A stretch of 64,000 nt of DNA from Minisyncoccota bacterium (GCA_036517335.1 DATDWX010000027.1:24192-88191), one strand, 5' to 3'. Counted from the stretch's first letter, positions 7,226 to 55,909 are shown. Numbers and translations: made by a program. The notes: generated from the sequence alone by a model not told the origin.

Positions 7226-7295
7226 GGGTACACCCCGTTAGAGGCCTCGCGAAATGTGCACGCGTTTTGCCATGAAGGCCTCTAACGGGGTACAC
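7226..7295. repeat. palindromic element: inverted copies of GGTACACCCCGTTAGAGGCC separated by a 24-bp spacer
   Basis: Arms at 7226-7248 and 7274-7295 are reverse complements. The CCCGTTAGAGGC core recurs at 20678, 35632/35899 and 53515/53619. Confidence 0.7.
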
Positions 7296-9435: not shown

Positions 9436-10518
9436 ATGAAGCGCAGGGCGTTTATCACCGGTATCACGGGCCAAGATGGCTCGTATTTGGCTGAATACCT
9501 CATCGGAAAAGGCTATGAGGTGTATGGTTTGATGCGGCGCACGAGCCTGGATCCCATGATGCGGCTCGAGAGCGTAATGAAGAGCGGCAAACTCAAATTG
9601 CTCTACGGCAATCTACGCGACGCTGCCTCACTTGCCCGCGCGCTCCAAGAGAGCAAGCCCGATGAGATCTACAATCTCGGCGCGCAATCCGATGTGGGCA
9701 TCTCCTTCAAAATTCCTGAAGAGACGATGGACGTCAATTATCATGGCCTCGGGCGCCTCATCAATGAAGCGACGCGTATCAGCGGGGCGGTGAAGATATT
9801 CCACGCCTCTACCGGTGATTTCTTTCTGCGCGCACATCCGCCGCAAAACGAAGTGGCGGTACGTCACGCCTCGTCTCCCTACGGAGAATCCAAATTGCGC
9901 GCGTATGAAGATTTTGTAAAAGACTACCGCGATCGCCGCCACGTCTTCATTAGTTCGGGTTTCATGTTCAATCACGAATCACCGCGGCGCGGTGAGCATT
10001 TTGTGACCCGTAAAATATCGCGGGCGATGGCAAAAATAAAGCTCGGACTCTCGAAGGATTTTTCGCTCGGCAATTTGGATGCACACCGCGACTGGGGATA
10101 CGCTGGCGATTATGTGAAAGCAATGCATCTGATGTTGCAGGCTAAGACACCCAGCGATTACGTGATCGGCACGGGCGAGGTCAACAGTGTGCGTACATTT
10201 GTGGAGGCATCTGCTCGCGAGCTCGGCATGTCTCTTACGTGGAAGGGCAGTGGGATGAAAGAAGTGGGTCAGGTGAAGGGGAAGACGATCCTCACCATCA
10301 ATAAGGAATTTTATCGCCCACCGGAAGCTGATTACCTCCTCGCGGATATCTCAAAAGTGCGCCGCGAGCTCGGATGGAAACCAGAAGTTGATTTTCAAGG
10401 ACTCGTCAGCATGATGGTGCGAGCGGATGTGGAGTCGCTTCGGCATCTCGCCCGCCCCGCTAGGGGCAAGGCTTCTAAGGGCTCTTCCACTAATAACCTG
10501 AAAGGTATTAGGGGTTAG
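9436..10518 (+). CDS. gmd: GDP-mannose 4,6-dehydratase
   Basis: MKRRAFITGITGQDGSYLAEYLIGKGYEVYGLMRRTS and NHESPRRGEHFVTRKISRA are GMD hallmarks. The start is the internal Met of ORF 9085..10518. The C-terminal 25 aa look like read-through, so the true end may be nearer 10440. Confidence 0.8.
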   Translation: MKRRAFITGITGQDGSYLAEYLIGKGYEVYGLMRRTSLDPMMRLESVMKSGKLKLLYGNLRDAASLARALQESKPDEIYNLGAQSDVGISFKIPEETMDVNYHGLGRLINEATRISGAVKIFHASTGDFFLRAHPPQNEVAVRHASSPYGESKLRAYEDFVKDYRDRRHVFISSGFMFNHESPRRGEHFVTRKISRAMAKIKLGLSKDFSLGNLDAHRDWGYAGDYVKAMHLMLQAKTPSDYVIGTGEVNSVRTFVEASARELGMSLTWKGSGMKEVGQVKGKTILTINKEFYRPPEADYLLADISKVRRELGWKPEVDFQGLVSMMVRADVESLRHLARPARGKASKGSSTNNLKGIRG

Positions 10519-18334: not shown

Positions 18335-19768
18335 ATGATCAAGGATATTGTCGAGACGACAGATTCGCAGCGGGAGGCCGATGTGTGCATTGTAGGAGCG
18401 GGAGCTGCAGGCATCCTCCTTGCGCTCGAATTGATGGAGGCGAGCCGCTCCGTCATCCTCCTTGAAGGGGGCGGTCTCACGCAAGATCTGCACGCCCAGG
18501 CGCTATACGACCTCGAATCACCGCTTCTTCCCGTGGGTAAGGATTCACGCGTGCGCGTATTTGGCGGCACCACAAGCGTATGGACAGGCGGATGGAAGCT
18601 GCTTGAGCGAGACGACCTCACGGTGCGCGATTGGATGCCGCTCTCCGGGTGGCCCGTGTCGTACGCCGAAATGGAGTTGCTTTACGACCGCGCGGCGAGG
18701 CGCGTGTGCGGACCCTCCACCGTCGACATTGCCGCCGTTACCCATGCGCAAGCCGCAGTGGATTTTTCGAAGCGCATTACCGAGAGCGGCGCGCTCGAGA
18801 CGACCGTGCTGTGGGAGCTGCCGGAGCGAGCGCGAGATTTCGGCAAGGTATTTCGGGCTGCGCTCGAAGCATCGCCTGCCGTACGGATCTTTCTCAACGC
18901 CAATGTGACGCGCATAGAGCGAGATGTCTCTCGTGTACGCTCCCTGCATATCAAGACATTGGAGGGCAGGGATTTCAATGTCAAAGCTTCCAAGTATGTG
19001 ATCGCCTGCGGTGGGATCGAGAACGCCCGTCTTCTCCTTGCTTCCGGCATTGGAAATGAACATGATCAGGTGGGGCGTTACTACATGGATCATCCGAAGG
19101 GCACGGTGGGCGCTATTGCCGCCGACGACTACTCTCTCTACAGCCACGTCATCACGCAGCAGCGGCGCGAGGCGGGCACGCTTATCACCGGCTTTCAGCT
19201 CTCCCCCGCTTTTCGCAGTGCGCGTAAGCTTCCTAATTGCTACGTGCAGATGCGTCCCATCTACGGGAAGCAATCCTTACCGAGTCGTGCAATGCACAAA
19301 TTCTTCGGCGTGCCGTACCCTGTCCGCGGCGTGCGTTTGCGTACCTTTATGGAGCAGGTGCCCTCGCCGCGCAGCAGGGTGGTACTCGGGGATGCGAGGG
19401 ATGCATTTGGTAATCCGCTTGCGAGAGTGGAGTGGTCGCTTTCGGAGCTCGACAAAGAAGGCGCGCGTGCGCTGCACCTTGTGGTGCAAGGCGAACTTGC
19501 GCGCGCGGGGCTCGGCACCCTCACCTCTGAAATCGTGGACCACCCCGAGCCGTGGCCCATTACCAAGGACGCATCGCACCATATGGGCACGACGCGCATG
19601 GGCGCTGATCCGCACACGTCGGTAGTCGACCCCGACTGCCGTGTACACGGAGTGAACAACCTCTTCATCGCCGGAAGCTCGGTATTTCCGACAGGAGGAA
19701 ATGCGAATCCCACGGCCACTATTCTTGCGCTCGCCGTGCGCTTGGCCGATCACATTAAAACAATATGA
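18335..19768 (+). CDS. GMC-family FAD-dependent oxidoreductase
   Basis: DVCIVGAGAAGILLALEL at the N-terminus and the C-terminal HHMGTTRMGADP...NLFIAGSSVFPTGGNANPT GMC signature. Confidence 0.75.
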   Translation: MIKDIVETTDSQREADVCIVGAGAAGILLALELMEASRSVILLEGGGLTQDLHAQALYDLESPLLPVGKDSRVRVFGGTTSVWTGGWKLLERDDLTVRDWMPLSGWPVSYAEMELLYDRAARRVCGPSTVDIAAVTHAQAAVDFSKRITESGALETTVLWELPERARDFGKVFRAALEASPAVRIFLNANVTRIERDVSRVRSLHIKTLEGRDFNVKASKYVIACGGIENARLLLASGIGNEHDQVGRYYMDHPKGTVGAIAADDYSLYSHVITQQRREAGTLITGFQLSPAFRSARKLPNCYVQMRPIYGKQSLPSRAMHKFFGVPYPVRGVRLRTFMEQVPSPRSRVVLGDARDAFGNPLARVEWSLSELDKEGARALHLVVQGELARAGLGTLTSEIVDHPEPWPITKDASHHMGTTRMGADPHTSVVDPDCRVHGVNNLFIAGSSVFPTGGNANPTATILALAVRLADHIKTI

Positions 19769-20874
19769 TGGAAAAACTACGCCGATCTCGCGTGCTCGTT
19801 TTTACCGCAGGCGATCACATCACCGCGAGCTCAAAATATCGAGCATTTCTTCTTGGCTCATACCTCACCGAAACGCGTCCGGATATAGAGTGGAAGCTAG
19901 TCGAGCCCTCCACGAAGATCCTGTCGTCGCTGGGCTATCTCACGCAAATGTGCGCTGTATTCTCTCAAGCGCGGCGGCTGTTTTGGCGACCGGAGCACGA
20001 TGTCGTCTTTATACAACGCGCCATCTACAACAAATTCGTTTTCGCCTTGCTTATCTTGCAAAATATTCTCCGCATCCGCCCAAGTATTTTTGATTTTGAT
20101 GATGCCATATTCCGACATTCGGGCTTCAAGACGCGCCTCTTGTGTAAGACGTCCAGTGCCGTGATCGTGGGGAGCCACTTTCTGCAGGAATATGCGCAGC
20201 GCTACAGCAAGCGTGTCATCCTCGTCCCAACGTGCATCAGATTTTCCGACTACGCGTCAATACCCAAGATGGGAGATAGATCTACATTCACAATCGGTTG
20301 GATCGGGAATGGGCCAGCGTCGCTGCCCGAGCTGCGCTTCATGGCCGAGGCGCTGAAGGAGCTGAATACTCGCACCCAGGCGTTCCGCCTTCTCCTCATT
20401 GGTCATCAGGGGCATCCGGAGATCCCGGGACTCTTCGAGTTTCTTCCTGCCGAGCGCAAAGAGCTCATAGATTATGTGAATGCAAAGACAGACGCTGATC
20501 TGATTCCGTATCTCGCGAAGATGGATATTGGTCTCATGCCACTCGAAGAAAGCGAGTGGAACAGGGGCAAGTGCGCATTCAAGGCTATTCAATATATGGC
20601 TACTGGCGCGGCGGTTGTGGCGAGCCCAGTGGGTGAGAATCCTGTTCTCATCACGCATCGCGTTACGGGAATGCTTGCCCCGTTAGAGGCTTCGCCTCTA
20701 ACGGGGCTTGCCGCGACCAAAGAGGAGTGGGCGTCGTGCATACAAGAGCTCATGCAAGATCCCGCGCTCCGGCAGCGCATCACTGTAGCCGCCCGCGACC
20801 ACGTCCGGGCGCACTATTCTTTCGAATCCCAGATCCCGAAACTGACCGAAGTCATCGACTCGCTTATCCATTGA
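19765..20874 (+). CDS. glycosyltransferase (GT1/GT4-like, GT-B fold)
   Basis: C-terminal AIQYMATGAAVVASPVGE motif. It contains an in-frame 29-bp palindromic insertion (see the repeat at 20678). Confidence 0.6.
   Translation: MMEKLRRSRVLVFTAGDHITASSKYRAFLLGSYLTETRPDIEWKLVEPSTKILSSLGYLTQMCAVFSQARRLFWRPEHDVVFIQRAIYNKFVFALLILQNILRIRPSIFDFDDAIFRHSGFKTRLLCKTSSAVIVGSHFLQEYAQRYSKRVILVPTCIRFSDYASIPKMGDRSTFTIGWIGNGPASLPELRFMAEALKELNTRTQAFRLLLIGHQGHPEIPGLFEFLPAERKELIDYVNAKTDADLIPYLAKMDIGLMPLEESEWNRGKCAFKAIQYMATGAAVVASPVGENPVLITHRVTGMLAPLEASPLTGLAATKEEWASCIQELMQDPALRQRITVAARDHVRAHYSFESQIPKLTEVIDSLIH
20678..20706. repeat. 29-bp perfect palindrome CCCCGTTAGAGGC-TTC-GCCTCTAACGGGG inside the glycosyltransferase coding sequence, flanked by the direct repeat GCTTG/CTTGCC
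   Basis: Read directly from the sequence. It has the same core as the other CCCGTTAGAGGC elements and encodes PLEASPLTG in frame. Confidence 0.75.
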
Positions 20875-20943: not shown

Positions 20944-23900
20944 ATGAATAGAGTCCCTAAGCGGGCTTTCGTTGTCGTCCTTGCTACGGCTGTTATTGTT
21001 GGTAATGCGGTGTCGGCGTATGCGGTGGTTATTCCTCCCACTGCACCCGGCCAATCCGTTTTCACCATCGGCAATCAAACGCCAAGAGTTGACGGCTCCA
21101 CGGGCGCACTTACAAGGCACATTTCTCTCGATATTCCGCCGGGGCGAAGCGGATTGCAACCTGATATTTCGCTCGATTACAACAGTCAGAACACCGAGCA
21201 AGAAAGCCTGGTCGGGTATGGTTGGACGCTATCGATCCCGTATATCCAAAGGCTCAACAAGACCGGTTCGCAGAACATGTATGGTCCAAATGCGTACTTC
21301 ACGTCCTCCTTCGACGGTGAGCTCGCAATTTCAGATACAGGGACTTCCACCTCTATGACCGTTTTGGTGGTGGCCGGTGGCGGAGGCGGCGGTAGTGATG
21401 GCGGAGGTGGAGGTGGGGGTGGAGTCAAAACAGTCACTATTCCTATTACAACGCCCCAAGCATATTCAGTCACTGTCGGAAGTGGGGGCACTGCCGGATC
21501 TGCCGGTGCCGGAACGCACGGTGGTCAGGGCGGGGATTCAGTTTTCGACAGTACCACTGCGCACGGGGGCGGATATGGCGCTGCACCAAATGGCGACACA
21601 AACCATCCGGCTGCTGGTGGGAGTGGCGGGGGTGCGGGGTATGGCAACAGCACCTCCGTCCCTACAGCAGGTGGTGCGGGTACTGCTGGCGAGGGAAATA
21701 ATGGCGGTGGCGGTTTGAATGGAGTGTCATCGTATGGTGCCAGCGGAGGCGGTGGTGGGGCAGGTGCTGCGGGCGCTGATTCTCCAGGGGGTGACACAGG
21801 GGCAGGTGCGGGAGGCACCGGTACTTCATCATCAATAAATGGCACTGCGACGTATTATGGAGGTGGAGGGGGAGGCGGTGGATTGCAAGGTGCCTACGGT
21901 GGAAATGGAGGCAACGGCGGCGGAGGCGGTGGCGCAAGTGGAAGTGGCACGCAGGGCACCGGCGGTAGCAACGGGGGCGCAAATGGCACGAACAGTTCAA
22001 ATGGTACCGGTGGAGCCGGCGGTACAAACTCCGGCGGAGGCGGAGGCGGAGGAGGTTTTCAATCAGACTACGGACCGGGCGGCGCGGGTGGTTCGGGCAT
22101 CGTCATTATCTCGGCTCCTGTCGGAGCGATCACATCCGCAACGGGCGGAACTCATACGACCGCGGGAGACAATGATGTATGGACGTTCACCGCTAGTGGC
22201 ACATTTACCATTGTCAGTGTTGCCGACGGCGCTTCAGATTCGCCAGCTTCATCAACCTATCGCGCCCGGGTAGACGACGGATCATTTCGCTCATACTCAT
22301 ATGCCACCTCGAGCAATTCATGGACGATGTACGATAAGAAGGGGACTCGATACCTTTTTGGTGCGAGCAGTCAGGGTCAGCAGAGCGCCACCACAAGTCC
22401 GAGCAGTGTATATAAATGGATGCTCGAAGAAGTACGCGACACCAACGACAATTATATTTCCTATACATACTTGAAAGATGAGAATCAGATATATCCGTAC
22501 CAAATCAAGTACACGGGCAATGGCGTTTCCGACGGTCCGAGTACTATTACAATTGCCACATCCACCAGAAGCGACCAGGCGGTAAGCTATAAATCCGGAT
22601 TCAAGGTCTTGACCGCGTATCGCATCTCCCAAATTACCGCGACTTTCAATAGTACAAACGTGCGCCAGTGGGCACTTGGATACGGTACCGGCAACAATGG
22701 CTCGCGCTCACTTCTCACAAGCATTCAAGAAACCGGCTGGAATGACGCAGGCACTCAAACCACGCTCCCTGCCGCGACCTTCGAGTATGTCAGCACCACC
22801 ACGCCGTTCTACGGGCCCAATCTTGGTACCAATGTTGTAGGTTCTGCGTACGTCGTTGCTGATTCCGAGGGGGACGGCATAAATGGCATCAGCATATTGT
22901 ATCTGGACGGGGGGAGTAATAAAGGAAAGATCATAAGTCCTGACGGCAACACCACAACAAATTTGACATCCCCAGCGCCACCTGAAGAGTGGTCGAATAG
23001 TGGGGGAGGGGCCCCGCTACCCACCTATTTGGCTGATGAGCGCGGCGTGCGCTATCTCGACGTTAACGCTGACGGGAAGCCAGACGTGGTGCGCGGCATC
23101 AAAGATGATTATGCGGCCACGACCACCAAGCAAATATATGAAAATACGTATGCCGCAACATCAACCTACGGCTGGACCAATGGGATCTCATGGAGTGGAA
23201 CCATTCCGGAATTCGCATACAAAAGCGATTCCACGCATAGTTGGACGACGGGTATTTTCGGGGATATCAATGGCGATGGCTTGCCCGATTATGAAGAGTC
23301 GCTCAACAACACCGGCGGCGCCATTACCAACGGCGCATATTTGGGCAATGGTACTGCATGGGATGCTGCTACCACCACCATATTCGCAGCCATGAATGTC
23401 ATGCCGGATTCTGTAAGCGGCCCGACAGTCTACAATCCACAACTGATCGATATCAACGGCGACAGTCTCGCCGATTGGGTGTCTTCGGACAGTTCTAATA
23501 CCTACGTACAGCTCAACACCGGGACGGGCTGGGTATACGACACCCGCTGGATCATCGCCACTTCCACGCTCTATCATTCCACTTCACCAGGCAACACCTA
23601 CTACGACCGTGGCATTCGGTTTATGGATATGAACGGCGATGGGCTGCCCGATTTTGTGCGTGCTTATGCCAACGCCCCCTTTACCGGTAGTGTCACCGAG
23701 CCAGAAATTGAGGTGGCAACGATAAGCTTGGTGCTTCTCAATACCGGGTCCGGATGGGCTACCAGTACTGCATACACTCTCGCCCCGATCGCATCCCCGT
23801 ATCATGATTCCGGCACGTCGTGGACAAGCGGGGTGATCGTCTACAACGAATATGCAAATTGGATAGGCAATGGCCAGATGCAACAAGACGTGCTTGCGAC

Positions 23901-26900
23901 CACGACCTCATCCAAGGGGGGTAGTACGACGGTTTCCTACGGATTGACGACGCAAACGAGCGCGAATACACAGCTGCCCTATGCACTGCTGACGGTCAAT
24001 TCAATTACAGATCACGATGGTCGCGGGAGCAATGAACGAACCGATTACGCATATTCGGGTGGGTTGCAATACCTTCCTTCCAATGTGTACGACCGCAAAT
24101 TTGCAGGCTTTGCAAGCACCACCGAAACGCGCCCCGACAAAACGACTGTCCGGTATTACCATCAAGGCACTCTTATGCAAACCGCGCTCGGCGAGCAGAG
24201 CAACGGATACGCCCACATCAATCATCCGTTCCGCGAAGATGTGTTTACTCCCAGCGGTACATCGGTACAAAAGACCTTCTATCGGTGGGACCCGTATACC
24301 AATGCGAGCAGCACACTCATTCTTCTCGGTAGGAAGTTGGAGCAAAACTATGCGAGCAATGGCACGCACCGCGATAAGGATACGGATTATGCATACGCGA
24401 CCAGTACGGGAGATATAATACGCATCAACGATTTCGGCGAAGTGAGCGGCAATTCCAACGGCACATTCAGCGACATTTCAGGCGATTCCCGCACTACGCG
24501 CTTTACCTATGCCGCGAGCAGCTCGGTATTCATGAGTGTCCCTATCCAAAAGACATTGCTCGACAACAGTTCCGCTACGAGTACTGATACGAAACTCTAT
24601 TACGACTCGCTTGCATTTGGGTCGGTGGGGCGTGGGAATCAGACAATGCAGAAAGATTGGATCTCGGGTGATACCTACGCTTCTACCACAAGAGCCTACA
24701 ACACATACGGCCTCGCGAGCAGCTCGACGGATAGGGGTGGCAACCTCACTTCCTACGTGTACGACAGCTTCAACCTATATCCCGCCACGAGCACCAATGC
24801 GTCTTCGCAATCCACACGCTTCACCTACAATTATTCAAACGGCAAGACAGCCACGACGACAGATCCAAATACCGCAATAGCCAAAAATATGTACGATGGC
24901 GTCGGACGACTAACAGAAATGTATCAATCCGACACCTCTAATCCGAGCACACTCGTTACCAAGGCCACCTACACGTTCACCGACAGCACGTCCACACCCT
25001 CTTTGATACGAGTTACGCAATACCTCAACTCCGCGACGACGACCGATACCTACACCTTTTATGACGGTCTGAACCGCCCCATTCAGGAGCGCAAATCCAC
25101 AGAGACCGCCGGCACCTACGCGACCACTGATCGCATCTACCACAGGGTGGGCAACCTGGCCTCGACAACGCTTCCGTATTTCTCATCGGGCACCTCGCTT
25201 ACGACAGCCACGAGTACCACCGCCCTCTATACCGAATTTCTCTACGATCCACTCGGTCGTCCCACGAAGGTCTCCAACTCTGTGGGCAGCACCACGAATA
25301 CATACGGGAAGTGGACGACCACTACGGTTGATCCAAACGGCAGTATCAAAGAGTATCTACTTGATGCGTACGGCAATCTCTCGCAGGTCGTGGAGCACGC
25401 TACCTCCACTGCGACCACGACGTATACATACGACGCTGCGGGCAACCTAGCATTGATCACCGATGCAGCATCGAGCACACGCGCTTTCACCTACGATGGA
25501 TTGGGGAGACGCACGGGCGCGCAGGATCTCCACGCGAGCGGCGATGCAACCTTCGGATCATGGTCGTACAGCTACGACGATGTAGGCAACCTTACGTCGC
25601 AGACCGATCCCAAGGCCCAGGTCATCACGCACACATTCGACGCGCTCAATCGCATGGTAACGGAAGCTTTGAGCGGCTCCGGAGTGCAGATCACCAACAC
25701 CTATGATTCATGTACCTACGGCGTCGGGCGACTCTGCAGCGCATCGAGTACTGCTGCACTCAATGCCTATGAATACGATGTGCTCGGCCGCACCAGCATT
25801 GCCACCAGTACCGTCAACGGTACTGGATATGCGACGGTGTATGGATATGATCGCCAGGGCAACCAAACATCCATTACATACCCGGACAAACGAGAAGTGA
25901 GCTACGTCTACAACGCCGCGGGTCTGATGAACTCGGTCAGTACCAAGCCGGTGGGCGGCGCATACTCGTCCGTTCTATCTGCCACGACGTACGCACCGGA
26001 TGGTAAACCTCTTACGAAACTCTTCGGCAACGGCGTCGAAACCACCTATACCTACGATCCCCTTCTGCAGTATCGTCTAACCCGGATGTTGACGGGCACC
26101 AATGCGGGCACGTCCACGGAAATCGTGCCGCTGGTGAGCGACCCGGTGGCGTACTGGAATCTGGATGAATCAAACGGGGTTGCCTACGATGCCATTGCCT
26201 CCAACGACCTCACCAACAACAATAGTGTTTCCTACGCGACCGGTACGATAAGCAATGCCGCTACCTTCGTAGCTGCCAATTCGCAATCGCTCCAGAAACT
26301 CACCGCTTCTGGCTTACCCACAGGTAGTGAGTCCATCGCCGCGTGGGTGAAATTCACGTCGCTTCCTGTAAGTACATGGTATGGCATCGTGGAGCAGGGC
26401 AACGCCGCGACGTCTTCAAAATTTGGCCTCACGATCACCGATGATCCGGTAGGGGCAGACAACCTCTACTCGTTGGCCATTGATCACTTCGGCGGCACCA
26501 ATGTGTATAGCGATGCCTGGTCTGGCGTGGCGACCGGCACATGGTATCACGTGGCCGCTACCTATGATGGGACCAATTTTCGCTGGTATGTAAACGGATC
26601 GCAGCTCGGCGCGGCAAAGGGCGCAGGCACGCAGACGACCAGCGGCGCGCAGATCGTGGTGGGAGCCATGATAGACAGCTCCTTGGAAAACTTCCTCAAC
26701 GGTTCCGTGGATGAGGTCGGGGTGTGGGACAACGTCTTGACGCAAAGCGAACTCACGGCGCTCTACAACGCGGGCGCGGGAGAGGCATATCCCTTCGGCA
26801 CTACCACGGTCAGCACGTATGGCTACGCCAACCTCATTCAGGATTTGAATTACACGTATGATGCGGTGGGCAACATTACGAATGTCACGAATAATTCCAC

Positions 26901-33888: not shown

Positions 33889-35631
33889 ATGCAGCGCGTT
33901 CGTCATCTTTGGGGTCTGTACCAGAAGGCCTTCGGGGCCTATACCTGGCAAATAGTGCTTATCATGGTGCTCGCGTTTGTCTCGAGCATTGTGGAGGGTA
34001 TCGGGATAAGCGCCATTATTCCGATATTTAGCTTCGTCGGCGGCACGCCGGGCGCTGCGGGCGACACCATCTCGCACATCATCGCGGGGATGTTCTCTTT
34101 TTTCCACATTACCTACACTTTCCGGATGCTGCTCATCTTCATCGGAGTCCTCTTCGTGCTCCGGATCTTCTTTATATTCGGCATCCAGTATGTGACGGGC
34201 TACATCATTTACAACTACGAGCGTGATCTGCGTCTGCGACTTTTCGGCGGGACGCTGGAGAGCCGTTGGTCGTACCTCTCGCAGCAGAAGGTCGGCAATT
34301 TGGAGCAGCTCCTCACTACGAATACCAGCAATGCCTCACAATTCTTCGGCAATATTTCCGCCTCCGCTCTCATATGCACGAAAGTCTTGATCTACATTGT
34401 GATCGCGATCAACATTTCGTGGTGGATCGCGCTGTTTAGTTTGCTCGCCGGATTCTTGATGGTCTTCGTGTTGCGCCCGATCTTCTATAGAGATCGCGCG
34501 ATAGCGACCGACGCGGAGCGCACCAATCGCTCGCTCGCACATTTCGTCAGCGAGCATGTCATCGGCATGAAGGCGATCAAGGCGATGGCGCTTGAAGAGC
34601 CGGTCAAAGCGCGCGGACGTGAGTTCTTCGACCTGACGCGTACGCTGAATCTGCGCGCCCGAGTGATGGGCGGCTATGTACAGGTACTAGTGCAAAGCGC
34701 GGGCATCGTTTTCGTCGCCATCACCTTCGCTATCATGTATCGTTCGCCGGGCTTCACGCTCGCTTCCTTTGCGGTCATCGTGTACGCCATCAATCAGATA
34801 TTCGCGCAGATACAGTCCGGCCAAAATCAGCTCCACACCATTGTGCGGCTCCTTCCCTATATTGGCGAAGCGTTTGCATATGGCGATCGCACGAAGGCGA
34901 ATGCAGAGGCGCGTGGCGGGGGCGCTCCGTTTGCTCTCCAGCAGAGCATTGAATTTCGCCACGTATCGTTTACATACCCAGAGCGCGGGAGTGTCTTGTC
35001 TGATGCGGATTTCCAGATCCACAAGGGTGAGCTACTTGGTATAGTGGGTCCCTCCGGCGCGGGCAAATCCACGCTTGCCGATTTGCTCCTGCGGCTTATC
35101 GAACCCACGAGTGGCATGATCGTCGTCGATGGGCGCGATGTGCAAGAAATATCAGTCGAGGCGTGGAGGTCGCATGTAGGCTATGTGGCGCAGGATGCGG
35201 TCTTGCTCAATGATACGATCGAGCAGAATATTCGCTTCTACAATGCGAAGGTGGGAATGGCGGATGTGGTCGCGGCGGCAAAGCTCGCGAATATTCACGA
35301 ATTCATCGAGACGCTGCCGCGGGGATACGAGACGGTGATCGGGGATCGTGGCATCCTCCTCTCCGGAGGCCAGCGTCAGCGGGTGGCGCTTGCGCGCGTC
35401 TTGGCGCGCAAGCCAGAGCTTCTCGTTTTGGACGAAGCCACCAGCTCGCTCGACCAAGAATCCGAACGCGCCATCCAAGCGGCGGTCGAAGGACTGCGCG
35501 GCGGCATCACGATCGTCGTCATCGCGCACCGGCTCTCGACCATCGAAGGAGCTGATCGTTTCATCGGGATCAAAGATGGAGTTGTTTCCGAATTGTCTCG
35601 CGACGAGGTGTTTGCAACCCGTTCCGTATGA
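33889..35631 (+). CDS. ABC exporter, fused permease and ATPase
   Basis: Six N-terminal TM helices, then Walker A GPSGAGKST, signature LSGGQRQRVALARVL, and Walker B LLVLDEATSSLD. Start taken at the internal Met MQRVRHLWGLY. Confidence 0.8.
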   Translation: MQRVRHLWGLYQKAFGAYTWQIVLIMVLAFVSSIVEGIGISAIIPIFSFVGGTPGAAGDTISHIIAGMFSFFHITYTFRMLLIFIGVLFVLRIFFIFGIQYVTGYIIYNYERDLRLRLFGGTLESRWSYLSQQKVGNLEQLLTTNTSNASQFFGNISASALICTKVLIYIVIAINISWWIALFSLLAGFLMVFVLRPIFYRDRAIATDAERTNRSLAHFVSEHVIGMKAIKAMALEEPVKARGREFFDLTRTLNLRARVMGGYVQVLVQSAGIVFVAITFAIMYRSPGFTLASFAVIVYAINQIFAQIQSGQNQLHTIVRLLPYIGEAFAYGDRTKANAEARGGGAPFALQQSIEFRHVSFTYPERGSVLSDADFQIHKGELLGIVGPSGAGKSTLADLLLRLIEPTSGMIVVDGRDVQEISVEAWRSHVGYVAQDAVLLNDTIEQNIRFYNAKVGMADVVAAAKLANIHEFIETLPRGYETVIGDRGILLSGGQRQRVALARVLARKPELLVLDEATSSLDQESERAIQAAVEGLRGGITIVVIAHRLSTIEGADRFIGIKDGVVSELSRDEVFATRSV

Positions 35632-35912
35632 ATCCCGTTAGAGATGACAAAAGTTGGTATACCTACGTACTTCGGAGTTTGAAGGACGGTAATTGGTACA
35701 CCGGTTTTACGAACGATCTACGGAAGCGCTTCAAGCAGCACAACGACGGGCTTACGTTCTCGACCAAAGGACGTCGTCCGTTAGAGGTGATATATTACGA
35801 AATGTGTAGAAATGAGCATGATGCTCGGTCGAGGGAATTATTTCTTAAATCTGGTATGGGAAAGCGTTATTTGCAAAACCGCTTGAAGCGCTTCCTATCT
35901 CTAACGGGATGA
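35628..35912 (+). CDS. GIY-YIG nuclease-domain protein (94 aa)
   Basis: SWYTYVLRSLKDGNWYTGFTNDLRKRFKQHN is the GIY-x10-YIG motif with the conserved R and N. The ATG overlaps the ABC transporter's TGA, and its own TGA overlaps the next gene's ATG. Confidence 0.75.
   Translation: MNPVRDDKSWYTYVLRSLKDGNWYTGFTNDLRKRFKQHNDGLTFSTKGRRPLEVIYYEMCRNEHDARSRELFLKSGMGKRYLQNRLKRFLSLTG
35632..35910 (+). mobile_element. small element bounded by 12-bp terminal inverted repeats ATCCCGTTAGAG / CTCTAACGGGAT, carrying the GIY-YIG gene and inserted at an ATGA gene junction
   Basis: TIRs at 35632-35643 and 35899-35910. The same termini and the same flanking ATGA...GAAATT context recur at 53515-53631. Confidence 0.6.
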
Positions 35913-37312
35913 AATTATTCTTGATCCAACTCGGGGAGATGGTGCCGGCGCAAGTAGATGTGGCGCGCATGCTCAAGAAAAATCACGAGATCCAATACTG
36001 GGTGCGGATGGAAAATCATTTCGCGGTCTACAGAGAGGAATTCGAGGGGACGTTCTTCCAGGATTATCTCGATGCGATTCAAGGGATTCCGGCTCGTGGG
36101 ATCGATCTGTACAAGTACGAGCCGTGGAGCGCGCACGATATCGCCGCATACGGGGATATCGAATCCGAGTACATGACCATGGCCGACAAATTGCATCCTC
36201 ATTGGTCTGTGAATCAGCGGAAGGATTTGTATTTCGATCTGCTTCGATACTGGGGCGGCATATTGGATGAATTCAAGCCCGATTGCATCGTTATCCTTGG
36301 GGTTCCGCATCACGAGTATGATTTCGTTTTGTACAAAATTGCGAAGCGCCGAGGTATACGTACGATCATCCTAGAGAACACGTTCAGAGGAGGTCGCTAC
36401 GTGTTGTATGAGGACTATACGGTTGGAAGCGAAAAATTTCTGATAGGGAATGGAGCGCGGGAGACAACACTTGAACAGCTCTCCCCTGAAATGCGTGCCT
36501 ATTTTGAACGCGTATCGCTGGGAGAGAACCCGGCGCCGCCCTACGTACAGGCATTCCACGAACGTCGTACGACCATTAACGCTATTCGCCGTTGGAATCA
36601 CGCCATCGTGCGATTCATTAAAGATCGCTCGCTCTTCGAACGTGCGATCTTGAAGGTGCTCAAGATGATGAAGCCATCTCTTAAGGATGAGCACCATGCA
36701 AACGAAAAAGCACCCAATTTCGATAATTCCTACGCGTATTTTCCCCTGCACTACCAGCCAGAATTTACTACGAGTCCCGCCGGAGGGCTCTATGTAGATC
36801 AAATGCACGCCATTAAAACGATTGCCGCGGCACTTCCAGAGGGATGGGAGTTGTATGTTAAAGAACACCCCGGCCAACTCGCCGTGCACGGCGGCAATTT
36901 TACGCCTGCACGCTACAGCGGCTTCTATTCAGCAATTGTCGCTATCCCGCATGTGCGACTTGTTCCGCTTGAGACAAATACGTACAAACTCATTGATCGA
37001 GCTCGGACGACCGCAACGATTGCGGGCACTGCCGGATGGGAGAGTATCTTGCGCGGCAAAACTGCACTCGTTTTGGGTTATCCGTGGTATTTGCAAGCGC
37101 CGGGCGTGCTTCGCGTATCGAGCGTCCCCGAATGTCGTAATGCTTTTGAAAAAATCACAGGTGGGTTTGTACCGCGGCAATCCGATATTCTCAGCTACCT
37201 CGATCGCGTCGACCAGGCGAGTTTGTACGGGGACTTACTTTATATAAAGACCGACACTCCGCAGTATGCGCAGGATATGTACACGGCTATCGAGGAGATG
37301 CTTGCATCTTGA
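35909..37312 (+). CDS. capsule polysaccharide biosynthesis protein (Capsule_synth / KpsS-KpsC-LipA family-like)
   Basis: YFPLHYQPEFTTSPAGGLYVDQMHAIKTIAAALPEGWELYVKEHPGQL is the family hallmark. Confidence 0.6.
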   Translation: MKLFLIQLGEMVPAQVDVARMLKKNHEIQYWVRMENHFAVYREEFEGTFFQDYLDAIQGIPARGIDLYKYEPWSAHDIAAYGDIESEYMTMADKLHPHWSVNQRKDLYFDLLRYWGGILDEFKPDCIVILGVPHHEYDFVLYKIAKRRGIRTIILENTFRGGRYVLYEDYTVGSEKFLIGNGARETTLEQLSPEMRAYFERVSLGENPAPPYVQAFHERRTTINAIRRWNHAIVRFIKDRSLFERAILKVLKMMKPSLKDEHHANEKAPNFDNSYAYFPLHYQPEFTTSPAGGLYVDQMHAIKTIAAALPEGWELYVKEHPGQLAVHGGNFTPARYSGFYSAIVAIPHVRLVPLETNTYKLIDRARTTATIAGTAGWESILRGKTALVLGYPWYLQAPGVLRVSSVPECRNAFEKITGGFVPRQSDILSYLDRVDQASLYGDLLYIKTDTPQYAQDMYTAIEEMLAS

Positions 37313-53436: not shown

Positions 53437-53514
53437 CATGATTTTCATGCCAAGCGGCTACCGATCTAGGGCGTTTGCTTCATACAAATGCTAGTGCTAG
53501 CATTGCAACAATGA

Positions 53515-53631
53515 ATCCCGTTAGAGGCCGCGGTCGCTCAGCGAATATCATTTACATGCATGTGGTCGAAATTACAAGAACGTCTAATCGCAGCTTGCGG
53601 GTAGCAGACCGCGACCTGCCTCTAACGGGAT
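53515..53631 (+). repeat. MITE-like, gene-less derivative of the GIY-YIG element (TIRs ATCCCGTTAGAGGC / GCCTCTAACGGGAT), encoding only a 40-aa ORF MNPVR...LPLTG
   Basis: It has the same 12-bp termini and the same ATGA / GGGATGAAATT junction context as 35632-35910. Its stop TGA overlaps the ATG of the downstream gene. Confidence 0.6.
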
Positions 53632-55909
53632 GAAATTTCTTGAGCAGACATTGCGCTCTATCGTCTTGTGTGGCGTTTTTGCCCTCCCAGTGGTCGCGCT
53701 TATCGTCGCCAACGAGCTTTTCTTCCCTTACATTACGGGCAAAAATTTTGCCTTCCGGATCATTGTCGAGATCATCACGGGCGCGTGGCTCGCCCTTGCG
53801 CTCGTCGTACCGAAGTGGCGCCCACGGCGCAGCTGGATTTTGGCGAGCTTTGCACTCTTTATATTCATAATGGCGCTGGCGGATGCGCTGGGCGCGTACC
53901 CGTTTAAGAGTTTTTGGAGCAACTACGAACGCATGGACGGCTTCATAACGATCGCGCATACGTTTGTGTACCTCGTGGTTCTGACCGCCGTGATGCAAAG
54001 CGAAAATCTTTGGCGCCGTTTGTTCCAATGGTCGCTCGTGGTTTCGGTATTTTTGAGCGTGCTCGGATTGCTGCAAGTAGCAGGTGTGCTCGCGCTTGGC
54101 TCCGGCGGCACGGGGCTCACGGGTCGTGTTGATGCGACGTTCGGCAATCCAATCTATTTTGCCGCCTACATGCTCTTCCATGTCTTCATCGGTATTCTGC
54201 TTTGGTATCAGATGTGGCAAGTACGCGGCAAAGGAAATAGACTCACCCCCTCTATATTTTACGGTTTTGTGATCGCGCTTGATACTGTGGCGCTCCTCCT
54301 CACCGGCACACGCGGCACGATGCTCGGCCTCATCGGCGGCGCATTTCTCACGCTCGTACTGCTCTCGATTGTCCCCGAGGCGCGTCGCTTGCGGCAGGTG
54401 ACTGCGATCGCTCTTGTAGCCCTGATCATCGGAGGCGGGGTGTTGTGGTCTGTGCGTGAAAGCGCGTTCATTCAGCGCATCGCTTTTTTGAACCGTCTCG
54501 CCTCGATCTCTCTGACTGACAACACGACGAAAGCACGCTTTTTCAACATGGGTATGGCTTGGCAGGGGGTAAAGGAGCGACCGCTCCTCGGCTGGGGGCA
54601 GGAGAACTACGCGGTCGTTTTCGACAAGTATTACGATCCACGAATGTACGGGCAAGAGCAGTGGTTTGATCGTGTGCACAATATCATCTTTGACTGGTGG
54701 GTTGCAGGAGGTTTTCTCGGACTTCTCGCCTACATCTCTATCTTTGTCGCAGCACTCTGGGCACTGTGGCGACCGAGCGTCGAGCGAGGAAGTACTGAAG
54801 CAAGCATGCTGAATGTGCGCAGAAGTCCTTCGGGTGTGGCGACCTTCACACACCCCGAGCGTAGCATTTTGACCGGACTGCTCGCCGCCTACACGGTGCA
54901 CAACATGACCGTCTTCGACAATGTGACGAGCTACATCCTCTTCGGAACGATTTTGGGCTACATTGCATACCGCGAGGCAGTGGCGCAAAGCGCGCACTCG
55001 ATTTTTGAGAAAGAATTTTTACCACGCGGCGCGCTCTCGATCGTGGCTGCCCTCGCAGCACTCGTCGTGTGGGGAGCAGCGTGGAGTATCAATACACACG
55101 CCTTCGCGGAGAACGAAAAAATCCTTGCCGCGTTGCAGCAGCGATCAGGTGGTCCCGCACAGAATCTCGCACTTTTCAAAGAGGCCATTAGCTACGGTAC
55201 CTATGGCGATCAAGAGGCACGTGAGCAACTCGCGCAGGTAGCAGCGCAGATCGCGGGAGCAGATGTGCCCGCCGACCTCAAAGCGCAATTTCGGGAGACC
55301 GCGGTACACGAACTTGATCTTCAGGCCGCGCAATCGCCCCTCGACGCACGCTTCCCGCTCTTTGCCGCGATGGTGCTTGGCGCGCACGGTGATTACGCCG
55401 CTGCAGCGACAAAATTGGAGCGCGCTCACGAGCTTTCGCCAAAGAAGCAAACGATACTGTTTGAGTTGGCCCAAAATGCAGGGCTGCGCGGCGATGTAAA
55501 CGCATCTCTCCAATATTTCAAGACGGCCTTTGAGCTCGAACCCGAGTATCTAAACGCGCGCATCTACTATGCCTCGGCATTGATCCGTGCGGGCAAAGAT
55601 GCCGACGCAGACGCCGTGCTTGCACCCATCATCCCCACGGGGGAGGCGGCGGACACACACATCACCGGCGCGTACGTTGCTCGCAAACAATTTGGTAAAC
55701 TGATCCCCATCTGGCAGGCGCGCATCGCCGTGTCTCCATCCGACGCGCAGGCGTATTTCACCCTAGCCGCTGCCTACTTCGAGTCTGGTGATACTGCGCA
55801 TGCGATTGCGACACTGGAGAAAGCAGGATCCCTCGACCCGGCCGTGAAAGAGCAGGCAGACAAGTATATTTTGGATATTCGGAGCGGGGTACTTAAGCCG
55901 GGGCAGTAA
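53630..55909 (+). CDS. Wzy_C-family (O-antigen ligase / O-oligosaccharyltransferase-like) membrane protein with C-terminal TPR repeats
   Basis: About 400-aa polytopic N-terminal region with ...GTRGTMLGLIGG... and the periplasmic loop typical of Wzy_C. The C-terminal 300 aa are Ala-rich TPR-like helices. Confidence 0.6.
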   Translation: MKFLEQTLRSIVLCGVFALPVVALIVANELFFPYITGKNFAFRIIVEIITGAWLALALVVPKWRPRRSWILASFALFIFIMALADALGAYPFKSFWSNYERMDGFITIAHTFVYLVVLTAVMQSENLWRRLFQWSLVVSVFLSVLGLLQVAGVLALGSGGTGLTGRVDATFGNPIYFAAYMLFHVFIGILLWYQMWQVRGKGNRLTPSIFYGFVIALDTVALLLTGTRGTMLGLIGGAFLTLVLLSIVPEARRLRQVTAIALVALIIGGGVLWSVRESAFIQRIAFLNRLASISLTDNTTKARFFNMGMAWQGVKERPLLGWGQENYAVVFDKYYDPRMYGQEQWFDRVHNIIFDWWVAGGFLGLLAYISIFVAALWALWRPSVERGSTEASMLNVRRSPSGVATFTHPERSILTGLLAAYTVHNMTVFDNVTSYILFGTILGYIAYREAVAQSAHSIFEKEFLPRGALSIVAALAALVVWGAAWSINTHAFAENEKILAALQQRSGGPAQNLALFKEAISYGTYGDQEAREQLAQVAAQIAGADVPADLKAQFRETAVHELDLQAAQSPLDARFPLFAAMVLGAHGDYAAAATKLERAHELSPKKQTILFELAQNAGLRGDVNASLQYFKTAFELEPEYLNARIYYASALIRAGKDADADAVLAPIIPTGEAADTHITGAYVARKQFGKLIPIWQARIAVSPSDAQAYFTLAAAYFESGDTAHAIATLEKAGSLDPAVKEQADKYILDIRSGVLKPGQ

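Follow-up and report, generated by a model that had tools for sequence, protein, structure and literature searches.

The window analysed here, the whole 64,000-nucleotide stretch of Minisyncoccota DNA, contains a short open reading frame (ORF) lying between two much longer genes, all three on the plus strand. The upstream gene (33736–35631) encodes a 631-residue ABC transporter with Pfam ABC_tran (E = 6.6e-35) and ABC_membrane domains, and the downstream gene (35909–37312) encodes a 467-residue capsule-polysaccharide-synthesis-like protein whose homologs begin at the same ATG (MKLF[LV]IG...). The ORF between them (35628–35912) starts with ATG, stops with TGA, and encodes a 94-residue GIY-YIG nuclease of the minimal UPF0213/SLX1-like type. 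An ATGA overlap is present at both junctions, as the initial annotation had described and the ORF coordinates bear out: the transporter TGA (35629–35631) overlaps the nuclease ATG (35628–35630), and the nuclease TGA (35910–35912) overlaps the ATG (35909–35911) of the downstream gene. Genes for tRNA and tmRNA are absent from the window.

The nuclease ORF is bounded by inverted repeats. The sequence ATCCCGTTAGAG at 35632–35643 recurs as its exact reverse complement CTCTAACGGGAT at 35899–35910, matching the 12 bp inverted termini that had been reported, and the perfect repeat amounts to 14 bp when counted over 35632–35645 and 35897–35910. Refinement of the ends places a 277 bp mobile element at 35633–35909, with terminal repeats of its own that are 13 bp long and a direct repeat, TGAA, immediately outside them at 35629–35632 and 35910–35913. 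The organization is as follows. First, the element is coding throughout (one nucleotide plus 92 codons) and has neither a start nor a stop codon of its own; the left terminal repeat TCCCGTTAGAGAT (35633–35645) encodes residues 2–6 (NPVRD) and the right terminal repeat ATCTCTAACGGGA (35897–35909) encodes SLTG. Second, the nuclease ORF begins with a codon made up of the host A at 35628 and bases from the left copy of the 4 bp target-site duplication, and the transporter stop codon falls within the same copy. Third, the right copy provides the nuclease TGA stop and the TG of the downstream host ATG, whose first base is the last A of the element. Finally, there is an inner inverted repeat, the left arm of which, GGAAGCGCTTCAAGC at 35722–35736 (codons R32–Q37), is paired in the predicted RNA fold with GCTTGAAGCGCTTCC at 35881–35895, just 1 nt from the right terminal repeat; the arms of this inner hairpin covary at synonymous sites among 64 distinct elements.

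Scanning the window with the 12-mer and permitting a single mismatch identifies 6 matches where 0.22 are expected, a number reached in none of 100 shuffled sequences, and the inverted termini are thus not a chance occurrence. The six matches correspond to three inverted pairs, and a fourth pair, of the 9 bp core, is located at 20680 and 20696. One further CCGTTAGAG at 35778, a third copy of the core within the nuclease ORF where it codes for PLE, is probably coincidental; many homologs have CCGTTTGAG.

The junction without the element is present in relatives. Orthologs of the ABC transporter gene at two loci in other genomes (L086 and L087) are 80–83% identical and lie in the same gene order, and in the ortholog with the 80%-identical transporter gene the empty site is CCGTATGAAATTATTC. 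The L087 gene (80% identical) reaches the junction and reads ...GCCGTATGAAATTATTC..., which is the window sequence minus the element and one TGAA, with 16 nt identical; the ABC/capsule junction is empty in both L087 and L093. Insertion into a pre-existing ATGA junction, as initially proposed, is therefore supported by this comparison of empty and filled sites, but the target suggested at that time, ATGA^AATT, gives way to a 4 bp TGAA duplication and a cut at A^TGAA.

Profile and structure searches confirm that the 94-residue protein is a GIY-YIG nuclease. The Pfam GIY-YIG model (PF01541) matches residues 10–76 as the sole domain, with a score of 58.6 bits (cut-off 22.6; E = 7.7e-16), and the AlphaFold2 model (mean pLDDT 88.8) consists of a three-stranded sheet and helices. 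Foldseek comparison of this model places UPF0213 and Slx1 at the top and also retrieves the catalytic domains of I-TevI and UvrC, and matches in the PDB are 1zg2, 1ywl, and SLX1. By comparison, the NCBIfam grpIintron_endo model scores only 16 bits (cut-off 56). In an alignment of 38 sequences, two of the catalytic residues (Y24 and R32) never vary and conservation reaches at least 90% at Y11, Y13, H38, and E58, and nearly all of the homologs listed (120) are 94 residues long. The nuclease ORF is intact in 68 of 71 elements of the family, whose usual length is 277 or 280 bp, and its dN/dS ratio is about 0.14, with synonymous sites saturated. Judged from these sequence comparisons the nuclease is under purifying selection, and the intact ORFs, the dN/dS ratio, the conservation of residues, and the fold all suggest that it is functional. 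A tblastn search of plasmids with the nuclease returns YazA-like genes only, and there is a single match to the nuclease-sized pattern in 2.9 million viral contigs, so that phages are apparently not the usual carrier.

A search for further copies adds three from the window itself and, from 80 loci of other genomes, about 120. The three in the window lack an ORF and are much shorter than the nuclease-bearing element. The first (115 bp, 53516–53630, plus strand) is flanked by TGAA at 53512–53515 and 53631–53634, sits on the start codon of a 759-residue ORF (53630–55909), and has fold z-scores of -3.3 (RNA) and -4.0 (DNA). The second (58 bp, 7233–7290, no strand assigned) belongs to a class with C/G ends, is intergenic, and is flanked by TACA at 7229–7232 and 7291–7294. 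The third is a minimal hairpin of 29 bp (20678–20706, likewise without an assigned strand) flanked by CTTG at 20674–20677 and 20707–20710, and is located within a glycosyltransferase ORF (19765–20874). Together with one copy of the duplication it amounts to 33 bp and is in frame, such that the glycosyltransferase gains the 11 residues APLEASPLTGL, an insert that is absent from all 14 of the more distant homologs aligned (40–65% identity).

The survey of other genomes covered these 80 loci as 20-kb windows around nuclease genes, 1.17 Mb in total. It contains 127 inverted core pairs; the nuclease gene lies inside 76 of these and about 45 have no ORF, although these family counts are not fully independent because the loci were picked for the nuclease gene and some of the sites are orthologous (e.g. 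L015/L016). The nuclease is the only protein that the repeats enclose, in 76 of 76 cases of protein-sized cargo. The 13 bp terminal repeats of the family, YCCCGTTAGAGNN and NNCTCTAACGGGR, are perfectly complementary to each other in nearly all of 95 distinct elements. At the two variable arm positions, 1 and 13, Watson-Crick pairing is seen in 66 and 67 of 68 elements, respectively (39 and 30 in shuffled pairings), there are none or one G:T pairs at covarying positions, and pairing stops at position 14. The repeats are conserved even where the ORF start lies downstream of the left arm, and the constraint on them is thus at the DNA level.

Identical 4 bp flanks are present in 67 of 105 elements, whereas permuted pairings average 19 and never exceed 30, and alternative offsets give lower scores; the flanks of the remaining 38 are not identical. 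There are 14 different words among these flanks; most have the form TNNA, with TGAA the predominant one. One metagenome-assembled genome has a pair of elements that share 95% identity but lie in unrelated flanks, pointing to recent copying, and several diverged copies of the nuclease can be present in one genome (L022; L024 and L030). The ORF-less copies are 29–125 bp long and retain the terminal repeats, and many also keep the subterminal hairpin beside the right repeat, recognizable as an 'ACGG-stem-loop-stem-CCTR' module. They share about 25 nt at the left end and the right subterminal module with full elements, and copies related to one another are found at several loci. Their sites include start codons, intergenic DNA, and now and then the interior of a gene, where they keep the frame. 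Their orientation relative to the asymmetric TGAA is the same in all 13 that can be oriented, which fits a strand-specific mechanism. The proposal that the TTRAA within the arm of the inner hairpin might guide the choice of target word, as in IS608, was discarded upon inspection by eye, as L012, L017, L018, and L021 disagree with it.

The borrowing and rebuilding of a start codon that was initially proposed for the single element proves to be a property of the family. In the class with T/A ends, a host ORF (80 codons or more) is opened by the element's last A and the duplicated TG in 45 of 51 elements with the nuclease and in 15 of 18 ORF-less ones (60 of 69 in total), whereas the second, C/G-ended class is mostly located away from start codons. 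Reconstruction of the target gives A (97%), T (100%), G (97%), A (89%), A (85%), and no other position is conserved. Occupied ATGAA sites resemble gene starts in 27 of 38 cases, compared with 8.8% of 3297 unoccupied sites, although this enrichment may merely reflect the loss of disruptive insertions. A frame that would couple the host gene to the left ATG is interrupted by internal stops in 10 of 16 ORF-less copies on start codons, and 6 of 16 have the required length class, which is no bias. Because the left-ATG frame stops inside those 10 copies, translational coupling cannot explain the expression of their host genes.

No transposase of the DDE, DEDD, or HUH class and no serine or tyrosine recombinase is encoded within the element, the sole ORF being that of the GIY-YIG protein. 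Likewise, the 1.17 Mb contains no elements of 1–5 kb with these repeats, only chance pairs with unrelated arms and one nested case in L069.

We consider it likely that the element in the window is one copy of a family of very small transposable elements that is widespread in Patescibacteria (the candidate phyla radiation), with the nuclease as the presumed mobilizer. Members of the T...A subfamily occupy A^TGAA at the start codon of a host gene, where the host ATG and any upstream initiation signals open the nuclease ORF and the duplicated TGA closes it. The last A of the element and the duplicated TG form a new host ATG within an ATGA overlap, and the host gene would presumably be translated by termination-reinitiation there, as at ordinary ATGA junctions. 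The nuclease would mobilize both full elements and ORF-less copies, and its association with the repeats is one of position in the sequence. By analogy with the Ssn nucleases discussed below, it most likely recognizes the folded repeats as a single-stranded DNA hairpin and cuts at the 4-nt flank, with joining completed by host ligation or repair. GIY-YIG nucleases act by hydrolysis, and none is known to join DNA or perform strand transfer; an additional joining activity must therefore be assumed. The stronger proposition, that these elements represent a new class of prokaryotic transposon in which a 94-residue hydrolytic GIY-YIG 'transposase' reads its own ends as a single-stranded DNA hairpin and inserts at A^TGAA, seizing the start codon and upstream initiation signals of a host gene and returning translation to that gene by way of an ATGA overlap, is one that we advance tentatively, and it could well prove wrong.

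The nuclease could instead be a passenger within a family of miniature elements (MITEs) that depend for movement on a conventional transposase supplied in trans, such as a DDE enzyme from one of the families that make 4 bp duplications (IS5-, IS1380-, or piggyBac-like). A 4 bp target duplication is a classic footprint of DDE transposases, and DDE elements typically combine it with terminal repeats that are short and perfect; moreover, the ORF-less copies outnumber what would be expected if each copy needed its own enzyme, and strand transfer, as noted, would be new for GIY-YIG enzymes. A partner acting in trans could also reside elsewhere in these genomes, as only the 20-kb windows around nuclease genes are covered. 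Several observations make this an unlikely explanation nonetheless. A longer element with the same repeats is not found in the 1.17 Mb, and a passenger would have to be the sole protein enclosed and to stay intact under purifying selection over many lineages. In addition, the repeats overlap and constrain the first and last codons of the nuclease, and the covarying hairpin lies within the nuclease coding sequence and is retained in the ORF-less copies.

We regard as similarly improbable a domesticated host system, comparable to Ssn/NTS of Neisseria or to REP/RAYT, in which the hairpins serve the cell, the nuclease acts on them to that end, and new copies arise rarely; possible roles are in limiting single-stranded DNA recombination or uptake, or in shaping mRNA. 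The age and wide distribution of the family and the strong conservation of the repeat sequence are compatible with such a system. However, several diverged nuclease copies can be found in a genome, whereas REP/RAYT-type enzymes are typically single-copy, presence or absence varies between orthologous loci, and insertions in coding sequence and on start codons resemble a tolerated burden more than a benefit. A precedent in favor of such a system is that SsnA/NTS modulates transformation, and domestication has been proposed for it (PMC11893778).

GIY-YIG nucleases are well established as the classic homing enzymes, and full and ORF-less elements have common ends and target sites, as would be seen if a homing-type nuclease gene had invaded pre-existing hairpins, cutting them and being copied into the loop by repair, with the hairpins themselves spread by other means. 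We think this very unlikely. The ORF-less copies share both the left 25 nt or so and the right subterminal module, and so appear to be deletion derivatives rather than precursors; arms of 13 bp are very short as homology for repair; the 94-residue single domain has no DNA-binding extension for long targets; and at the ABC/capsule junction a full-length element occupies a site that in relatives is empty and not hairpin-bearing.

That the repeats are an immobile terminator, RNA-processing site, or regulatory stem conserved with the flanking genes has a negligible chance of being correct, since, although the stems are predicted in RNA as well as in DNA, the same repeats are carried to sites beside unrelated genes in dozens of genomes and into coding sequence, the target duplications and the orthologous sites without repeats contradict it, the right arm is followed by TGAAATTATTC with no T run, the stem encloses a 250-nt ORF, and there are almost no G:U-type pairs at covarying positions. 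Searches of Rfam 15 are negative, both over the entire window with gathering thresholds and around two of the elements at E <= 1.

The interest of these elements lies in the absence of any known type of transposase. If the nuclease moves them, GIY-YIG chemistry joins the transposase classes (DDE, DEDD, HUH, and serine and tyrosine recombinases), and the lower size limit for an autonomous element drops below 300 bp; if the tentative new class is real, then 277 bp would be, to our knowledge, the smallest self-sufficient mobile element, and a working model for how the hairpin repeats associated with Ssn spread (NTS/dRS3 and perhaps also the palindromic elements of Rickettsia). Placement on a start codon would give a parasite unusually clean expression with little harm, its own promoter, ribosome binding site, start, and stop all being unneeded. 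Systems of Ssn nucleases and hairpins gain a concrete mobile-element anatomy (ends, duplications, and empty sites), and multiplication of the hairpins becomes directly testable. In automated annotation of candidate-phyla-radiation genomes, gene starts will be mis-called at element sites and repeat-derived 11-residue insertions will be missed. A nuclease of 94 residues that is partnered by a defined DNA hairpin also has appeal as a tool.

The closest described system is that of the Ssn nucleases. Chenal et al. (2025; Nat Commun 16:2388, PMC11893778) describe 94-residue GIY-YIG nucleases flanked by cognate hairpin repeats, which they bind in single-stranded DNA; SsnA cuts single-stranded DNA site-specifically beside its cognate hairpin and does not cut double-stranded DNA or RNA. 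The same authors point to a likeness with insertion sequences and REP/RAYT and place Rickettsia among the SRM-rich genomes (PMC11893778). The SsnA of N. meningitidis belongs to the CDD cd10448 clade. There are two principal similarities. First, in both systems the protein is a single GIY-YIG domain of about 94 residues with no extra DNA-binding domain. Second, a cognate repeat able to form a hairpin flanks the gene and recurs elsewhere in the genome, here with four copies in the 64-kb window and the ORF-less copies in the 80 other loci. There are also clear differences. The gene here lies within one hairpin, with one arm on each side, and not between complete hairpins as in Ssn. The published SRM pattern, HGTCWYN(0-2)YYVSBRHN(0-5)WNVSBRGN(0-2)RNCYNB, matches none of the four window elements and has one unrelated match in the 64 kb, compared with 7 matches in the 1.5-kb gonococcal ssnA locus. 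Furthermore, the window protein is nearer to UPF0213/YazA (46% identity, 55 bits, E = 2e-16) than to the gonococcal SsnA ortholog (33% identity, 35 bits, E = 6e-9; hhalign probability 96%), and with the pattern unmatched we do not file the element under Ssn. The opinion that this combination had not been described holds in part: a 94-residue GIY-YIG nuclease with flanking hairpins is already reported, whereas that paper (PMC11893778) has nothing on Patescibacteria, on duplicated targets or empty sites, on insertion at start codons or ATGA coupling, or on small copies derived by deletion. Full-text literature searches return no description of the element, its repeat sequence, or bacterial GIY-YIG genes with target duplications, and the Ssn paper alone comes close.

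The IS200/IS605 elements, with their PATE derivatives, and REP/RAYT systems are similar in that their nuclease gene is very small, they rely on terminal hairpins, cleavage or insertion takes place at a tetranucleotide, palindromic derivatives without an ORF exist, and the orientation relative to the target is fixed. Their enzymes, however, belong to the HUH Y1 transposases, which work through covalent intermediates, and the elements generate no target duplication, whereas the elements described here have a GIY-YIG enzyme, true terminal inverted repeats, and a flanking 4 bp direct repeat; the enclosed gene is not the HUH Y1 gene by which REP/RAYT is recognized. Classical pairings of insertion sequences with MITEs (IS5, IS1380, and piggyBac-like; Correia and further bacterial MITEs) share the terminal repeats, a 4 bp TNNA-type duplication, an autonomous element with deletion-derived small copies, and insertion near gene starts. 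The features by which such pairs are known, namely terminal repeats, a duplication of fixed length, and unrelated loci with two empty-site cases, are all found here. They differ in that there is no DDE transposase, that the autonomous element would be just 277 bp, and that the arms are perfectly complementary even at variable positions. Homing endonucleases of the I-TevI and Seg types, whether free-standing or intron-borne, carry a C-terminal DNA-binding region and have a single long and specific homing site within a conserved gene. They differ from the nuclease described here, which lacks such a region and is found at many sites sharing only A-TGAA.

Rickettsia palindromic elements (RPEs), which are 100–150 bp long, are palindromes that can lie in frame within protein-coding genes and add a short peptide, as does the copy at 20678–20706; we know of no description of a nuclease gene inside an RPE palindrome, or of RPE placement on start codons. 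The best sequence and fold matches to the nuclease are with UPF0213/YazA/YhbQ and eukaryotic SLX1, the latter being a structure-specific nuclease acting on branched DNA. The yazA gene of B. subtilis differs in its setting: its neighbors are trmNF and rsmI, and neither at the gene nor next to it is a mobile element annotated. Finally, the Slx1-like genes of prokaryotes have been regarded as repair genes passed on by vertical descent (PMC1564403), whereas the family described here is bounded by repeats, present in multiple copies, and apparently mobile.

The 94-codon open reading frame at 35628–35912 encodes a product assigned to the GIY-YIG domain family (Pfam PF01541, E = 7.7e-16), and inspection of the ORF and sequence places it, its inverted termini and both ATGA stop/start overlaps exactly where the initial annotation had put them. 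Family analysis sets the element boundaries at 35633–35909 (277 bp), with terminal inverted repeats TCCCGTTAGAGAT and ATCTCTAACGGGA, and a direct repeat of TGAA on the two sides (35629–35632 and 35910–35913). The element itself provides neither a start nor a stop codon. The nuclease begins at an ATG made up of a host A and TG from the left TGAA and ends at a TGA supplied by the right TGAA, and the last A of the element joins TG from the right TGAA to give the downstream gene its ATG.

With up to one mismatch allowed, the window has six matches to the 12-mer ATCCCGTTAGAG or its complement (0.22 expected), all paired as inverted copies, and a search for the 9-bp core reveals a fourth inverted pair; the window thus contains a repeat family, to which the feature at 35633–35909 belongs. 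The other three copies lack an ORF, and we refer to such copies as minis. The first (53516–53630, 115 bp, TGAA on both sides) lies on the start codon of a 759-aa ORF, the second (7233–7290, 58 bp, TACA on both sides) is intergenic, and the third (20678–20706, CTTG on both sides) is a 29-bp hairpin within a glycosyltransferase ORF. The expected stems form in all four copies (fold z-scores −3.3 to −7.0). Within the nuclease ORF (35778–35786, coding PLE) the core CCGTTAGAG occurs a third time, probably through a coincidence of codons, since many homologs have CCGTTTGAG instead. One mini subtype (window 53527–53540 and 53603–53616, and at L017 9309, L021 4100, L030 11630 and L049 2438 in nuclease loci of other genomes) has a stem lengthened by CGCGGTCGC/GCGACCGCG-like arms, and several of its members contain GCGATCGC, an octamer identical to the cyanobacterial HIP1 palindrome. 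The interrupted glycosyltransferase adjoins a 2929-aa ORF (20944–29733) with two long Gly-rich repeat blocks and one region that is RHS/YD-repeat-like by eye.

The source genome belongs to the Patescibacteria (candidate phyla radiation), and the identical protein carries the label Candidatus Paceibacterota. The nuclease has more than 2400 homologs; among the matches listed, nearly all are exactly 94 aa long, and their ends hardly vary (M[NSI]PVR[DE]... and ...RFLSLTG). A genome scan gave at least 577 matches, from which 80 loci were retained. Across these the termini CCCGTTAGAG and CTCTAACGGG are kept as DNA, even where the left arm is followed by stops and an internal ATG opens the ORF, and rare variants alter both arms jointly (e.g. 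CCCGTACGAAA with TTTCGTACGGG). The window and 80 loci (1.17 Mb) contain 127 inverted pairs, 76 around the searched nuclease gene, three in extra nuclease-sized copies and about 45 in minis of 29–125 bp; further copies, for which the initial annotation had proposed looking, are found both in the window (three) and across the 80 loci. Two nuclease elements of one metagenome-assembled genome are 95% identical, with unrelated flanks. Elements evidently insert into or beside each other, because in one locus (L069, 146–906) an outer pair AATCCCGTTAGACC...GGTCTAACGGGAT surrounds both a nuclease-bearing element (decayed ORF 404–717) and a mini (722–847). The left flank of another nuclease element (L058, about 9990–10006) is cctctaacgggATGAATCCCG, so that the right end of a different element abuts it with ATGA(A) common to both, and a third (L027, about 2806–2850) directly follows an apparent 3′ end of a tRNA gene (GGTTCGAATCC...). 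Nuclease elements are also present on contigs labelled Omnitrophota, Ratteibacteria, Endomicrobia, Desulfobacteraceae, Bdellovibrionales, Thermodesulfovibrionia, Planctomycetota and Proteobacteria (L029, L036, L047, L050, L054, L056, L061, L064, L065, L069, L081 and L084); either the family has spread horizontally outside Patescibacteria or these contigs are mis-binned.

The arms are complementary over exactly 13 positions in 95 distinct elements, with no pairing beyond position 13 and almost no G:T pairs; variable positions 1 and 13 are paired in 66 and 67 of 68, versus 39 and 30 after shuffling. A second inverted repeat lies within the ORF (35722–35736 and 35881–35895; consensus GGAARCGYTTYAA with TTRAARCGYTTCC), where the K33-R34-F35 codons pair with those of K87-R88-F89; a single base separates its right arm from the right terminal repeat. 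Compensatory changes are found here at synonymous positions (64 distinct elements), and these comparisons argue firmly that both the ends and the internal hairpin are under pairing constraint. Many long minis retain an 'ACGG-stem-loop-stem-CCTR-repeat' module together with some 25 nt at the left end, as would be expected if they were deletion derivatives that had kept what is needed in cis.

With the element defined as YCCCG...CGGGR, identical 4-bp flanks are present in 67 of 105 elements (permuted left/right pairings give a mean of 19 and a maximum of 30), and alternative offsets score lower. There are 14 different duplication words, mostly TNNA, with TGAA dominant. A C/G-ended subfamily (L019, L022 (6846), L048, L057, L062, L077 and L080) has non-matching flanks in the arrangement TTCA-CCCCG...CGGGG-TAAA; TGAA reads as TTCA on the complementary strand, and TAA from the right flank serves as the nuclease stop codon.

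Empty sites are found for two insertions. Among homologs of the downstream capsule-synthesis-like gene fetched from metagenomes, one locus (L087) has an upstream ABC-transporter gene 80% identical over 595 residues that reaches the junction itself. Its junction is GCCGTATGAAATTATTC, that of the window CCGTATGAA[element+TGAA]ATTATTC, and removal of the element and one TGAA leaves a 16-nt identity; the ATGA overlap therefore predates the insertion, as had been proposed. In the glycosyltransferase, 11 residues (APLEASPLTGL) are absent from all 14 homologs aligned (40–65% identity) and correspond to the 29-bp hairpin plus one 4-bp duplication copy, a total of 33 bp, so that this insertion is in frame. 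At the level of sequence, defined ends with duplications, many sites and empty sites in relatives are all established.

Elements with T...A ends are almost always at A-TGAA; for 45 of 51 nuclease-bearing elements and 15 of 18 minis in this class, an ORF of 80 codons or more begins at the rebuilt ATG. The borrowing of a host start codon and the rebuilding of a host ATG thus extend from the window element across this class. The reconstructed target has A, T, G, A and A each at 85–100% with no other conserved position, and 27 of 38 occupied ATGAA sites are gene-start-like, versus 8.8% of 3297 unoccupied ones. Elements with C...G ends are mostly away from start codons, and a few rebuild a GTG. The bias may reflect either targeting or loss of harmful insertions. 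The geometry of nuclease-bearing elements yields an ATGA overlap, and the host gene would most naturally still be translated by termination-reinitiation there; this is not a general explanation for minis, because 10 of 16 examined have internal stops.

The ORF is intact in 68 of 71 elements, dN/dS is about 0.14 (synonymous sites saturated) and predicted catalytic residues are conserved; the nuclease is under selection. The predicted structure is confident (mean pLDDT 88.8), and its best matches, UPF0213 proteins and the structure-specific nuclease Slx1, agree with the GIY-YIG identification. We suggest that the nuclease is the mobilising enzyme, which would recognise the folded ends in single-stranded DNA and cut at the 4-nt flank, with joining completed by host functions. 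As the main rival, a conventional but unseen transposase could act in trans instead; no 1–5 kb elements with the same ends are present in the window and 80 loci (1.17 Mb). One tetranucleotide copy may be carried along with the element, the 'duplication' being carry-over and not fill-in, a possibility consistent with TGAA dominance and fixed orientation. Orientation relative to the asymmetric TGAA is the same in 13 of 13 minis where it is readable internally, which fits a strand-specific mechanism, though it could come from inheritance from a decayed full element, or selection. The feature is real, and its initial interpretation correct in essence.

The initial annotation considered the combination undescribed, and the element itself is absent from the searchable literature, but a close system has been reported. 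SsnA of N. meningitidis, a 94-aa single-domain GIY-YIG protein, binds NTS, a hairpin repeat, in ssDNA and cleaves adjacent to it, is inactive on dsDNA and RNA, and has homologs whose genes are often bracketed by such repeats; likeness to insertion sequences and REP/RAYT was remarked (Chenal et al. 2025, PMC11893778). Slx1-like genes of prokaryotes were taken in an older survey to be repair genes passed on vertically (PMC1564403). For comparison we recovered a gonococcal ssnA locus, with 12 NTS/dRS3 hairpins in 1.5 kb. PLSDB lists a 2.17-Mb N. gonorrhoeae chromosome (NZ_CP119140.1) among its plasmids, with annotation for only 12 features and none for its ssnA ortholog. The window protein is 33% identical to gonococcal SsnA (E = 6e-9; hhalign probability 96%) and 46% identical to B. 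subtilis YazA of the UPF0213 family (E = 2e-16), and the published SRM repeat pattern has seven matches in the gonococcal locus and none at the window elements. The element probably acts as Ssn/hairpin pairs do, whether or not it belongs to the Ssn family, and is best filed beside that pairing as a variant of it. Target duplications, start-codon placement and Patescibacteria, none of which feature in the Ssn/NTS report, are all found in the present family; what is new relative to the known pairing is a full transposable-element anatomy and an unusual relation to host start codons.
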